Source: a virus (taxonomy: Duplodnaviria > Caudoviricetes). Taken from it: a DNA stretch of 29,439 bases. Numbering within the stretch: position 1 is the first letter of the stretch; each line of letters opens with the position of its first letter. The notes beneath the pieces are model-generated. The model ran no database searches. It worked only from the letters and a program-made list of their open reading frames with translations, and was not told the origin of the DNA. The translations under genes were made by a program, and so were the position numbers. Below, in pieces: positions 9,693 through 14,441 of this stretch. The DNA is taken from positions 1 to 29,439 of the IMG/VR virus record IMGVR_UViG_3300044297_000136. One strand, written 5' to 3'.

Positions 9693-10106
9693 TTATTTAA
9701 TCTGAATTGTCTTTGGCTTCTTTTCTTCTGGAACGATACGCTCTATGTCAATATTTAGCATTCCATTTTTAAATTCAGCCCCAGTTACTTCCATAAATTC
9801 ACCGAGCGAAAAAGATCTAGTAAATTTACGAGTGGCAATTCCTTTATGTACGACATACTTATCTTCATCTGTTGACAATTCGCCCTTAATAATGAGTGTT
9901 GAATTATCTACTGATATGTTGATATCTTCTTTGTCGAAACCCGCCAATGCAATATCAATTCTATAAACATCATCATTTTCTTTGATGATATTGTATGGTG
10001 GGTAAGAATTTTGTTGATTATATACTGAATTTAATTTGGCTAATGTTCCATTCCAGCCAATAAAAAAGGGGTCATTAAAAATGCCCCATGGATCTTGTAG
10101 AACCAT
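9693..10106 (-). CDS. hsp20: small heat-shock protein, Hsp20/IbpA-like
   Basis: SYPPYNI, IALAGF, HKGIATRKFTRSF and NGML motifs; SD AAGGAGG. Confidence 0.95.
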   Translation of the reverse strand: MVLQDPWGIFNDPFFIGWNGTLAKLNSVYNQQNSYPPYNIIKENDDVYRIDIALAGFDKEDINISVDNSTLIIKGELSTDEDKYVVHKGIATRKFTRSFSLGEFMEVTGAEFKNGMLNIDIERIVPEEKKPKTIQIK

Positions 10107-10174
10107 TATTCCTCCTTCAAGCGAATAAAGTAATATATGCGGACCCCGTTAGGCGATCCGCATATATTATAACA
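10106..10174 (-). promoter_or_regulatory. hsp20 promoter, 13-bp inverted repeat and ROSE-like SD-masking hairpin
   Basis: TGT-TATAAT (-10 at 10166-10171). IR arms at 10131-10143 and 10157-10169. Hairpin UUAUUC-G-CUU-GAAG-GAG-GAAUAA at 10106-10128. Confidence 0.6.
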
Positions 10175-10195
10175 AATTATATTTTTATTGTAAAA

Positions 10196-10693
10196 TTACC
10201 ACTTTGGTCGTGCGACTGCCATGATTTTAGCATACTTACGAGTTTTCTTATAAGCGCCATCACCATTAGCTTGTGAACCAGAGTTATCTGCTGCTGTGTT
10301 TCCTTCGAATGTAACCATTTGTTGCTTGTCTGGTTGGTTTACATAAACAATTCCAACATGCTCTGCAGTAGTTGCATCGTCATCAAAATTGAAGAATACG
10401 ATATCTCCTGGTTGTGCTTGTCCTGGGGCAACTAATTGATTGTTCTTTGCAAACCAGCGAACTCCTGCATTACATGCAGCAAATCCCTTTGGTCCTTGTG
10501 CTGCAACCAACTTTGTAAGTCCAGCTTGATCAAAACAATATGAAACAAACATTGCACACCATGGTTGGTGGTTTAGTCCAAACCACTTACCAAAAATGGT
10601 ATCGTTGTTTTCTCCTTCTTTATATGCCTCATCAACATACTTTTTGGCAACAGCCAAAACCTTGAGGGCATTTGGGTTTCTTTCTTCAGCCAT
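10196..10693 (-). CDS. CHAP-domain peptidoglycan hydrolase (endolysin)
   Basis: QPWCAMFVS (catalytic Cys), PGDIVFF, HVGIV (His) and EGN. Confidence 0.88.
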   Translation of the reverse strand: MAEERNPNALKVLAVAKKYVDEAYKEGENNDTIFGKWFGLNHQPWCAMFVSYCFDQAGLTKLVAAQGPKGFAACNAGVRWFAKNNQLVAPGQAQPGDIVFFNFDDDATTAEHVGIVYVNQPDKQQMVTFEGNTAADNSGSQANGDGAYKKTRKYAKIMAVARPKW

Positions 10694-10877
10694 TATTATC
10701 TCCTTTTAAAATTGACTTCTTTACTTCTTTAGATTTATTTTCTGAGGCATATAGGGCACGTAAATGTGCAAGAGCCCGAGATTTACTTGGATGGCATCCG
10801 ACTAATTCGTTTGTGCCTTCCTTTACTACACCAAAACCTTTACAACCAGCAGCACCCTGCTTAATCTGCCAAGGCAT
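10686..10877 (-). CDS. small phage protein
   Basis: MPW.I......C....VVK......GCH.....A..HLRALYASE; coupled to both neighbours. Confidence 0.7.
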   Translation of the reverse strand: MPWQIKQGAAGCKGFGVVKEGTNELVGCHPSKSRALAHLRALYASENKSKEVKKSILKGDNNG

Positions 10878-11332
10878 TAGTTACTTCCCATTGACTTCAT
10901 TGATGCTCTTAATTTCCAGCCAAGTTTTTCTTGCATATCAATTCTTTCTGCAATAAAATTAGCTAGACCCTGTTCATTTGCTGATGTTGCCACATTAAAA
11001 CATTCTTTAAGGTCAACAAGCATTTGTTCATTTGAATTGTATAGCGAGCTAAGCATTTGAAGTGGGTTATTTGCATTCATATCTAAATCATATTTGATAT
11101 TTGAAGCTGACATGGCATCCATTACAGAGAATGCTGCCTTGATATCAAATCTACGCAACCATTCAGCCCAATCGTCAACGGTTTCCCAAAGATCATTATA
11201 AATTTCGCTAAAGAATGAGTGGAATTGTTCAAATAAAATTCCTTCTACATTCCAGTGATATCCATGTGCTTTGGTATAAAAAATAAATGAATTGGCTTGA
11301 AGGGTCCTCAAGCATAAAATCAATTGTTCCAT
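10877..11332 (-). CDS. dps: Dps-like mini-ferritin
   Basis: Ferroxidase-centre motifs HGYHWNVEG, FHSFF and D..AE; SD GGAGG; extended -10 at 11348-11356. Confidence 0.9.
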   Translation of the reverse strand: MEQLILCLRTLQANSFIFYTKAHGYHWNVEGILFEQFHSFFSEIYNDLWETVDDWAEWLRRFDIKAAFSVMDAMSASNIKYDLDMNANNPLQMLSSLYNSNEQMLVDLKECFNVATSANEQGLANFIAERIDMQEKLGWKLRASMKSMGSN

Positions 11333-11369
11333 ATTTCCTCCAAAATAATTATATCATTTTTAAATTGTG

Positions 11370-11444
11370 TGGAGCCTCCCGTCAGGATTGAACTGACGAC
11401 CTTCCGCTTACAAGGCGGATGCTCTACCACTGAGCTAGAGAGGC
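11370..11444 (-). tRNA. tRNA-Thr(UGU), CCA encoded
   Basis: GCCTCTC..TCCGC-CTTGTAA-GCGGA..GTTCAATC..GGGAGGC-T-CCA. Confidence 0.95.
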
Positions 11445-11448
11445 GTAG

Positions 11449-11522
11449 TGGAGCAGGTAGGACTTGAACCTACGATTACCCGATTATGAGTCGGGGGCTT
11501 TAACCAGCTAAGCTACTGCTCC
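11449..11522 (-). tRNA. tRNA with CAU anticodon, probably Ile2 (lysidine); elongator Met not excluded; no encoded CCA
   Basis: GGAGCAG..CCCGA-CTCATAA-TCGGG..GTTCAAGT..CTGCTCC-A. The paired G1-C72 argues against an initiator. Confidence 0.88.
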
Positions 11523-11950
11523 ATATTTATTTTAAAATATTTTTTTACAGCTTTTTCTAATTTATCAGAACCTTGCCAACCTATTTCACCATCAATATTC
11601 CAAGATAAATCTTTTTTATTTATTCTAGCAAATTCTTTGTACCATTCCAAATATTTAATATCAAAATTTTTTCCAGTTTTAATTACATGTATCTGTATGA
11701 CGCCACCATAATTTACAATTGATGCTAGGCAATCACTTTTATTTGGTTTTAAAAATTCTGGTATTTTTTCTTCTATTATCCATAAACAAAAAAATTCAGT
11801 ACATTGTGGATTAGGCCTTTCATCATAAATTGTACAACCGGAATTTAATATTAGGAAAAAACATGGTTTTCCTGGATAAAAATCATGACCGTATGCCTCA
11901 CCTCTAAGTGAGCCATCACAACATTTGGTACATCCGTTACATTTTTTCAT
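11513..11950 (-). CDS. YkgJ-like CxxCxxCC cysteine-cluster (Zn/Fe-S) protein
   Basis: CNGCTKCC, then PCFFL, GCTIYDERP, C.EFFC.W and KP motifs. Confidence 0.8.
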   Translation of the reverse strand: MKKCNGCTKCCDGSLRGEAYGHDFYPGKPCFFLILNSGCTIYDERPNPQCTEFFCLWIIEEKIPEFLKPNKSDCLASIVNYGGVIQIHVIKTGKNFDIKYLEWYKEFARINKKDLSWNIDGEIGWQGSDKLEKAVKKYFKINMEQ

Positions 11951-11953
11951 AAG

Positions 11954-12025
11954 CTGGAGATGTGGGATTCGAACCTACAACCGCCCGATTAACAGTCGGG
12001 TGCTCTGCCGTTGAGCTAATCTCCA
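11954..12025 (-). tRNA. tRNA-Asn(GUU), no encoded CCA
   Basis: TGGAGAT..CCCGA-CTGTTAA-TCGGG..GTTCGAATC..ATCTCCA-G73; one A-C mismatch in the T stem. Confidence 0.92.
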
Positions 12026-12028
12026 ATG

Positions 12029-12101
12029 CGCCCCTAGAAGGAATCGAACCTCCGACGCAGACCTTAGAAGAGTCTCGCTCTATCCGCTGAGCTATAAGGG
12101 C
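12029..12101 (-). tRNA. tRNA-Arg(UCU), no encoded CCA
   Basis: GCCCTTA..AGACT-CTTCTAA-GGTCT..GTTCGATTC..TAGGGGC-G. Confidence 0.93.
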
Positions 12102-12391
12102 CTATCAATATTCATAGGAATTATTCCGATTTTTTTTGCCTCTTCTAATCCTTCTTCGGTAAAATGAACTATGGCTTCAAGATTTTCATCATATTCAATC
12201 TCTGCTAAATCTCTTTTATATAAATCTAAAACCATATCATCAATATGTTCGATATGTACCTTCCAAAGTTCTGGTGCAACTTCTTTTGCTTTTTCTAGAA
12301 TAGTATACAAAAATTGACCATCTTCGTCAATACCAGAAACTTCTATAGCACCAATTTTGCTGTAATAAGCAATTAATAAATCATTGTCCAT
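12092..12391 (-). CDS. acidic hypothetical protein
   Basis: 99-aa ORF whose stop codon lies inside tRNA-Arg. Confidence 0.75.
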   Translation of the reverse strand: MDNDLLIAYYSKIGAIEVSGIDEDGQFLYTILEKAKEVAPELWKVHIEHIDDMVLDLYKRDLAEIEYDENLEAIVHFTEEGLEEAKKIGIIPMNIDRPL

Positions 12392-12399
12392 AATAACCC

Positions 12400-12639
12400 C
12401 TATTCTTTATTTCTAGAGTTGAACTGCTCTACAGTTTTTTGAACATATTCGGAAAAATGTTTTCTAATATTTCCGGGAGGTCGTGATCCCGTAACAGACC
12501 ATAGTCTTTGATATTCCATAATGTTTGAAAATGTTGTGGGGCAAACTATTATTCCATTAAAATCTTTTAAAACTGTAGGCAAAGGAACATGCTTGTTACA
12601 GCACTTACATTCTTTTGCTAATTCTTGGTATTTGCTCAT
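12400..12639 (-). CDS. Cys-rich hypothetical protein
   Basis: CKCC and CPTT motifs; ATGA overlap with the terminase stop. Confidence 0.7.
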   Translation of the reverse strand: MSKYQELAKECKCCNKHVPLPTVLKDFNGIIVCPTTFSNIMEYQRLWSVTGSRPPGNIRKHFSEYVQKTVEQFNSRNKE

Positions 12640-14441
12640 ATAACTTCCATATCGCTACTTATATCATAGTCTGATAAATAATTTGCTAACTGTTCCGGCA
12701 TTCTTGGTGCCCGAATCATATTTGTAACAATTGTATCATCTGCTTCGGACTCAAACATCATTGAATCATATGTATGAATATTTATTTCTCCATTTGTATC
12801 AACTTTTGTTTTGGTTATTGCATTATATATGGATCCACATACAGCATCAGCCAAATCTTTTGAACCTTTTCTTGGATGATCTACTCTGTCCCTCATTATT
12901 TTTAATTGCAACAATTCATCTATTAACAATGGAATATGTGGTCCAGATAATCTTTCTTCCAAAACAATCATAGCCATATCATCATAATGCTTTTTGGCAA
13001 CTGATAAAGTTTCTGTATTAATTCCATATTGTTTTAATTGTTGCATCATGTCGTGGGAGTTCCATCTATCAAAAGTACAAACACGAATTTTAAAGCCAGC
13101 CGTTCTTAAAGATAAAATATAATCTTTTACTTCTGTAAAGTCTACCGACTTATCAGCTGTTGGTGTCCAATATCTTACAGCATCAACTTCAACTATTGGT
13201 GCTGGTTGTGAATATGTATCGGTAACTCTTACATTAACCCATTTCTTTACATGTGACATTGATACGGCACAATGGTCGTGTTTCTGTGCAAGGTCAACGT
13301 GCAAGAAATATTCTTTATCTGGATCGGGTGCAAACCAAGGTTCTAATCTTCCAAAAGTATCTACGGCTAATGCCATATTATTAAATGCTTTTTCTATTTT
13401 CTCTCTTGATTTAAAAAATGCATCAATTGCTTCTGGTGGCATACACGCATATCGAGATAGAGCATCTGGCATATTTTTATAAAATTCAATTTTAAAATCT
13501 TCAATTTTTTTAGTCGGATTGACATCCCATGTAGGTCTTTTTAATGCATACACTTTTGGTATATTATAAGAAACTATATGATCTTCTTCCCACTCTACAT
13601 CTATTTCATTTCCTTGTGTTCCATCCGGCAAATCTTCATCCATTTTTAATCTTTTAGATCTTACAATAGTTTCTTTTTCAGCAATAACTGAGTCATAAAA
13701 CTTTTGAATTGGATCATTCTTGAATCTAGGAAATGATAACAAAATTACTTTACCATAATCTGGAAAACGAGAAATAACAGATCCTCTATACATATCATAT
13801 ATGGCATCTGCTGTTTTAGCTTGATCATGTCCGGTAGTATTTTCTGTGGCAAATCCAGAAATTTCGTCTAGAATAACAGCAATTACGTTATATCCTTCGA
13901 ATGCTTCTCGTTCTGAATGACCAGAATAAACATTTATATTCTTATCAAACCTAATCTCAGAGGCTTTGGGATCGTACTTTCCAACAAACCAAGGTGATCT
14001 TTCGATGCGTGTTTTTAATCCTTTAAAAAAAACATTGTTTGCTTGTTGTGCGTTAACAGCAATGTTAATGATATCTATTGTATCTCCGGGAGGTTTCCCG
14101 TAATATGTTGCCGGATCTTTTAAACATAATAATAAATAAACCATATATGAAACTGAAATTGTAGATGTGTAATCTTTTCCGGAACCTTTTCCAAGTTGTG
14201 CAATGATTTCAGTACAGGTCTGCTTATATCTCTTTTTACCCTCTTCTTGTCCAAAAAGTTTAATGAGTGTAGATTCTTTATAAATTTGAGATCCCTTTTC
14301 AATGAGTGAATACTGATATTCTGACAATGGTGGAAGGGCAAGATAGTCTGGACTTGTTACAAATGTTTTTAAATCAACAGGTCTCTCATCAAATTCTTCA
14401 CCATCGAGAATATCAATAAGATCATCAAAATTAAGATCCAT
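12636..14441 (-). CDS. terL: terminase large subunit
   Basis: Walker A GKGSGKD, Walker B VILDE, coupling motif LLSFP. RNase-H-like nuclease acids in HVDLA, FDRWNS and KDLADA. Confidence 0.9.
   Translation of the reverse strand: MDLNFDDLIDILDGEEFDERPVDLKTFVTSPDYLALPPLSEYQYSLIEKGSQIYKESTLIKLFGQEEGKKRYKQTCTEIIAQLGKGSGKDYTSTISVSYMVYLLLCLKDPATYYGKPPGDTIDIINIAVNAQQANNVFFKGLKTRIERSPWFVGKYDPKASEIRFDKNINVYSGHSEREAFEGYNVIAVILDEISGFATENTTGHDQAKTADAIYDMYRGSVISRFPDYGKVILLSFPRFKNDPIQKFYDSVIAEKETIVRSKRLKMDEDLPDGTQGNEIDVEWEEDHIVSYNIPKVYALKRPTWDVNPTKKIEDFKIEFYKNMPDALSRYACMPPEAIDAFFKSREKIEKAFNNMALAVDTFGRLEPWFAPDPDKEYFLHVDLAQKHDHCAVSMSHVKKWVNVRVTDTYSQPAPIVEVDAVRYWTPTADKSVDFTEVKDYILSLRTAGFKIRVCTFDRWNSHDMMQQLKQYGINTETLSVAKKHYDDMAMIVLEERLSGPHIPLLIDELLQLKIMRDRVDHPRKGSKDLADAVCGSIYNAITKTKVDTNGEINIHTYDSMMFESEADDTIVTNMIRAPRMPEQLANYLSDYDISSDMEVI

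Follow-up and report, generated by a model that had tools for sequence, protein, structure and literature searches.

Stop codons of two phage genes on nucleotides 8-10 of the following tRNAs, probable scars of a tightly packed and fast-changing tRNA array

The stretch of DNA analysed here (the window) is the whole of a 29,439-nucleotide (nt) virus record, IMGVR_UViG_3300044297_000136 of IMG/VR, and the subject is a pair of open reading frames (ORFs), ORF A and ORF B, each of which takes its stop codon from the 5' part of the tRNA gene that follows it. All of these features lie on the minus strand. ORF A (12092..12391) encodes 99 amino acids (aa) and is a conserved gene located 3' of the terminase gene; its final 10 nt are nt 1-10 of a tRNA-Arg(UCU) (12028..12101, detected with ARAGORN and Rfam, CCA not encoded), and nt 8-10 of this tRNA (12094-12092) form the ORF A stop. 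The next gene is a tRNA-Asn(GUU) (11954..12025), the discriminator of which is followed by CTT and then by the start codon of ORF B (11513..11950). ORF B encodes a 145-aa CxxCxxCC cysteine-cluster protein (PHROG 9155) whose presence varies between strains, and its final 10 nt are nt 1-10 of a tRNA with a CAU anticodon (11448..11522; called Met by ARAGORN, and either Met or Ile2), nt 8-10 of which (11515-11513) provide the ORF B stop. The last tRNA of the cluster, tRNA-Thr(UGU) (11370..11444), precedes a Dps/ferritin-like gene. The order Arg, Asn, CAU, Thr is thus that of four tRNAs, all of which, together with their 5' ends, are agreed by Rfam RF00005.

Read on the minus strand, ORF A ends in GAT AG/G CCC TTA TAG and ORF B in AAT AT/G GAG CAG TAG, where the slash marks nt 1 of tRNA-Arg(UCU) and of tRNA-CAU, respectively. 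These two tRNAs score 60 and 72 bits with Rfam RF00005, which places their 5' ends exactly where ARAGORN does, and the 7-bp acceptor stems of both fold. Both ORFs are co-oriented with the tRNA cluster, and each stop is located on the 3' side of the site at which the tRNA 5' end is processed. The preliminary description of this DNA had reported that two ORFs borrow their stop codons from tRNAs, and in this it was correct: the overlaps are real and each stop ends at tRNA nucleotide 10, hereafter position +10 (the interval that it gave, 11513-12101, covers ORF B but omits most of ORF A). It had also noted that the register is the same at both sites, which is true but less telling than it seems, as TAG is common at tRNA nt 8-10. 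Of the 577 distinct tRNAs in the loci gathered here, 383 have TAG at these positions; a gene that runs in meets this TAG as its first conserved stop, which largely forces the shared register. Entry into a tRNA in a random frame leads to a stop at +10 in 22% of cases, so that two of two would be expected in approximately 5%.

ORF B is a real gene, since 663 representatives match it, the cysteines C4, C7, C10, C11, C30, C39, C50 and C55 are invariant in 138 ORF B-family sequences, its AlphaFold model is confident (mean pLDDT 94, the last residues being the least confident with pLDDT 69), and 14 of the 18 differences found in an independent ORF B contig fall at third codon positions. The protein matches PHROG 9155 with an E-value of 4e-23, and homologues of the family are present in cyanophages. 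It resembles YcgN (PF03692) in carrying CxxCxxCC...CxxYxxRP, and 9 of the 138 family members match PF03692 at E <=0.01, but ORF B itself scores weakly (15 bits versus a curated cut-off of 232) and all scores are far below the cut-offs. Homologues of ORF A also exist (PHROG 36770, a weak match with an E-value of 5e-4), and ORF A had no match in Pfam and none among cultured phages. Pfam likewise gave no match for the ORF B protein of the window, in which profile searches found neither a nuclease nor a recombinase domain. Nuclease domains (HNH, GIY-YIG or other) gave no profile match in either protein, and a wide fold search returned no clear match, a result that does not exclude a family.

The relatives of ORF A comprise 37 distinct C-termini, 19 of which have a tRNA-Arg within 200 nt. 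Seventeen of these 19 variants stop between -186 and +1. The other two, from the window and a 99%-identical strain, stop at +10 and form one lineage. The preliminary description had suggested that the overlap could act as a built-in expression limiter or timer; as a selected device this fails the refuting test of that description for ORF A, where the overlap is not kept among homologues and these mostly stop no later than +1. Compared with the relative L045, the window can be followed codon by codon through PM(N/D)I(D/E)(R/K), up to the residue that overlaps G1; past G1 the window consists of tRNA sequence and L045 reads DIPNN-stop. Another relative (P0006, 87% identical, with the first 72 residues in common) ends two residues sooner, without a tRNA-encoded tail. 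Most relatives carry a tRNA-Met between the 79-aa gene and ORF A that is absent in the window lineage (window 12392-12400), and therefore the region has been compacted. A single deletion of tail, stop and spacer would be the simplest history of ORF A. The alternative is a point change of a TA/G stop such as that of L060 and L077, which shares its frame with +10. Two RNA libraries from one study contain contigs that span ORF A into tRNA-Arg (such libraries can hold DNA, and assembled contigs show no RNA ends), and no terminator-like site was found between ORF A and tRNA-Arg.

As for ORF B, a near-identical strain (L001) carries tRNA-Asn, a single C and tRNA-CAU, with ORF B absent. Sequencing run X12 holds contigs of both forms, namely a contig with ORF B and a joint that connects 11522 to 11953 and so omits ORF B; on its shorter side this joint is only 27 letters long, and it is flagged as unsure for that reason. 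A 61%-identical homologue (P0002) ends four aligned residues sooner. In ORF B an out-of-frame TAA ends 4 nt before G1, which is a typical spacing, and a one-base slip in an A/T run may therefore have bypassed the gene's own stop. At the opposite end of the gene, the ATG is situated 3 nt after the tRNA-Asn discriminator (window 11950-11954, minus strand) and is preceded by no Shine-Dalgarno-like motif; judged by their N-termini, 5 of the 8 genes with the shortest tRNA-to-ATG leaders (n=104) belong to the ORF B family. The same 3-nt leader is seen in L020 before an unrelated 337-aa gene.

The ORF B family was represented by 119 distinct C-termini, 108 of which have no detected tRNA starting within 60 nt. 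The remaining 11 stop at +10 (five), at +8 (one) or before the tRNA (five). The +10 stops fall in five tRNA types, CAU (window), Ile-UAU (L414), Thr-CGU (L394), Pro (L390) and Ala (L421), and the five members concerned are scattered on a poorly resolved ORF B tree (4 changes for 5 rows), so that these junctions arose separately. At the tRNA-Ile(UAU) junction of L414, related phages have a spacer of 5-8 nt. In L394 (238-3500), three related GIY-YIG-like genes with a common N-terminus are interleaved with tRNAs around the ORF B homologue. A further homologue (L372) runs to +17 of a tRNA that is cut by the contig end, and a 38%-identical one (L036, 3420-3445) has at its end 11 nt that match tRNA-CAU nt 2-12 exactly; the 9 nt upstream of this remnant are also identical, and no tRNA-CAU follows. 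In this scattered recurrence of +10, the ORF B family resembles homing-endonuclease genes.

Gene ends at tRNAs were also surveyed more generally. In total, 207 raw junctions with gaps of at most 60 nt, for which ORFs of at least 240 nt were called mechanically, were collapsed at 80% identity to 95; these samples are of limited size and were selected through homology or a motif rather than randomly. Overlap proved uncommon, with 11 of the 95 distinct junctions running more than 2 nt into the tRNA, and +10 was found in 0/40 junctions of a generic viral sample. Run-ins end at other positions too (+8, +17 and +23), and five of them are due to families other than that of ORF B, namely ORF A, three nuclease genes (HNH, GIY-YIG and endonuclease VII) and a carbamoyltransferase. 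The HNH gene (L388, 553-1100) lies between a 5' fragment of one tRNA-Val and an intact, different tRNA-Val, with its stop at +10 on nt 8-10 of the intact copy. Separately, L368 (2400-2420) and L471 have a tRNA-Gly(UCC) with A for U at position 8, and the resulting TAA at nt 6-8 is the stop of two unrelated genes.

We consider it likely that both stops on the TAG of tRNA nt 8-10 are deletion or insertion scars in a tightly packed, fast-changing array, filtered for the nearest conserved stop. The simpler reading in the preliminary description, genome compaction that exploits a ready-made TAG, fits best once it is refined in this manner. Relatives carry a highly variable tRNA array 3' of the terminase, with cargo genes between the tRNAs, mostly a few bases from the next tRNA. 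In such an array, mobile or newly inserted genes with loose tails would end up in minimal tRNA leaders, or their spacers would be lost. A single deletion in an ancestor of the lineage would have taken away some five tail codons of ORF A together with its stop and spacer, and ORF B would have entered the 1-nt gap between two tRNAs, probably together with flanking tRNA sequence and by recombination, its own stop being bypassed, perhaps by the one-base slip. Junctions at +10, which add three residues to a dispensable tail, would survive better than deeper run-ins, and the conservation of the tRNA itself would then fix the borrowed stop.

Ribosomes on stop-less mRNA are rescued by tmRNA, and RNase P cleaves at tRNA nucleotide 1. 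Cleaved messages would therefore yield tagged products, ribosomes stalling after D96 of ORF A or N142 of ORF B, with tmRNA rescue and somewhat lower output. That RNase P cleavage would leave a stop-less mRNA follows from established biochemistry, and such an mRNA would probably be a side effect of the overlap. The earlier proposition that tRNA maturation and complete translation of the upstream gene are 'mutually exclusive' on a given transcript is too strong: translation can precede maturation, and where it finishes before processing one transcript could give protein and then tRNA.

Several points weigh against the explanation by scars and filtering. Run-ins end at +10 in 7 of 11 cases versus the 22% expected for random frames (p 0.004), and this excess, which we read as filtering, is also what selection for the overlap would look like. 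After collapsing, 5 of 10 ORF B-family junctions are at +10, whereas other genes have 2 among 85 (Fisher p 8e-5); without the window the figures are 4/9 versus 1/22 for same-locus neighbours (p 0.017), and with a stricter length the neighbours stand at 1/16 (p 0.040). Variants within the window lineage retain both overlaps, and the proposed deletion and slip were reconstructed by comparison with relatives that have diverged.

A selected limiter or timer, most plausible for ORF B, in which protein is made only between two tRNA-processing steps, is in our opinion unlikely. Spelled out, 3' processing of tRNA-Asn would free an ORF B mRNA almost without a leader, and RNase P acting at tRNA-CAU would strip its stop. 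The scattered +10 junctions in five tRNA types and the short leader of ORF B, devoid of a Shine-Dalgarno-like motif, argue for it, as does the frequency of ORF B-family genes among those with the shortest leaders. In this phage group, leaderless mRNAs may arise through tRNA 3' processing. Leaderless initiation requires a 5' phosphate and drops with distance from the 5' end, according to the available part of a review (PMC9031893). However, motif-less short leaders precede unrelated genes in the same loci too, and the ORF A overlap is restricted to one lineage. In the ORF B family, where a selected overlap has partial support, 5 of the 11 tRNA-adjacent members stop at +10, as many stop before the tRNA, and the great majority (108/119) have no adjacent tRNA detected. 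It is even less probable that a processing-window timer, with the ORF B family switched on by upstream tRNA 3' processing and off by downstream RNase P cleavage, evolved independently in at least five tRNA types in unrelated lake phages; such a timer would perhaps have been selected because the ORF B product acts on RNA or harms in excess.

The limiter idea is already published, the same logic having been proposed for T4 segB (PMC2330249) and bacterial selB/selC (PMC8124441), as far as the accessible parts of these papers extend. In the segB case, the mRNA is cut just before the stop during tRNA maturation, and the authors proposed that this limits expression (PMC2330249, text available in part). 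The window junctions resemble that of T4 segB and its tRNA-Arg in that an ORF lies within a phage tRNA operon and its message would be cut at tRNA maturation. They differ in that segB is a homing-endonuclease gene, the message of which is cut between last codon and stop, whereas neither gene here is a recognisable nuclease, the predicted cut falls three codons earlier and the stop is U8-A9-G10. For selB/selC of Proteobacteria, processing of the overlap was modelled as giving a nonstop upstream and a leaderless downstream mRNA, and the portion of the article available also reports that ORF tails hold remnant tRNA sequence and that close relatives have lost the overlap (Mukai, 2021; PMC8124441). 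There, selB has a functional partner in tRNA-Sec and the overlap is conserved widely, whereas the window ORFs have no known functional tie to their tRNAs. Phage T5 (NC_005859) provides a further comparison, with small genes and HNH genes interleaved with tRNAs. At 4 of the 11 junctions tabulated from 16 of its 25 tRNAs, a stop lies inside the next tRNA, at +6, +14, +23 and +24; no +10 occurs among those junctions, and T5 belongs to another phage group and has another host.

Another possibility, which we regard as rather improbable, is that ORF B is welded to a tRNA as a gene-plus-tRNA cassette that spreads through recombination within the tRNA genes at its flanks and has the borrowed stop as its hallmark. 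The boundary between presence and absence of ORF B falls exactly between two tRNAs, the L036 homologue keeps its tRNA-CAU remnant with no such tRNA after it, and the HNH gene of L388 is preceded by a 5' fragment of tRNA-Val and has its stop at +10 of an intact tRNA-Val, all as a cassette would lead one to expect. However, the 1-nt spacer makes any viable insertion precise anyway, the five +10 cases occur in five different tRNAs and therefore do not reflect the spreading of a single cassette, and ORF B has no nuclease or recombinase domain by the profile searches. Moreover, a cassette would account for transport and not for the origin of the overlap, and it is compatible with the explanation by scars. 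Finally, an artefact, in which the ORFs are unreal or mis-ended or the tRNAs are pseudogenes, could be invoked from the missing Pfam matches of both proteins and the lack of a visible ribosome-binding motif before ORF B, but it is highly improbable and largely refuted by the matches, third-position differences and confident model of ORF B, by tRNA scores of 60-72 bits and by the presence of both junctions on independent contigs.

The overlap is ordinary in kind, and the one small novelty is a cargo family with a cysteine cluster, the members of which end on U8-A9-G10 repeatedly. Within the portions of the literature that our searches could reach, there was neither a survey of stops in the +10 register nor a report on the ORF B family, and there was no direct test of the idea, proposed for T4 segB in 2008, that processing removes the stop. 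In the ORF B family, alleles with and without the overlap occur naturally in a small gene that is no recognisable nuclease gene, and the stop-removal idea is therefore cheap to test. If the overlap leaves output unchanged, it would represent an evolutionary ratchet of modest interest. Gene callers and annotators often disallow overlaps between coding sequences (CDSs) and tRNAs; real genes here end inside tRNAs, which is relevant to such rules in annotation.

The contig is a 29-kb phage fragment with terminase, DnaE, primase, helicase, RecA-like, Hsp20, Dps-like, endolysin and WhiB genes. The terminase large subunit, 62% identical to that of Streptomyces phages such as Gilson (MK061412.1) and its kin, and the conserved 79-aa gene (12400..14441, minus strand) open the variable tRNA/cargo region. 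The sequencing runs that contain the contig are freshwater or aquatic. The window is a lake phage related to large Streptomyces phages, and its host would be actinobacterial. Stanwilliamsviridae Streptomyces phages (Gilson) have, as in the window, a tRNA-rich region after the terminase; in Gilson, the annotated starts of CDSs 122, 132 and 187 coincide with the first base that follows a tRNA, and in the 38 kb examined no annotated Gilson CDS ends inside a tRNA 5' end. Stress-type cargo, a Dps/ferritin-like gene and Hsp20, adjoins the tRNAs of the window (9693-11332), and relatives hold other inserts at the Dps/Hsp20 position, a carbamoyltransferase among them. In run X12 (window 11287-12439), joints point to co-occurring relatives in which the 79-aa gene, tRNA-CAU, tRNA-Arg and Dps follow in this order and both ORFs are absent, or possibly to other organisms.
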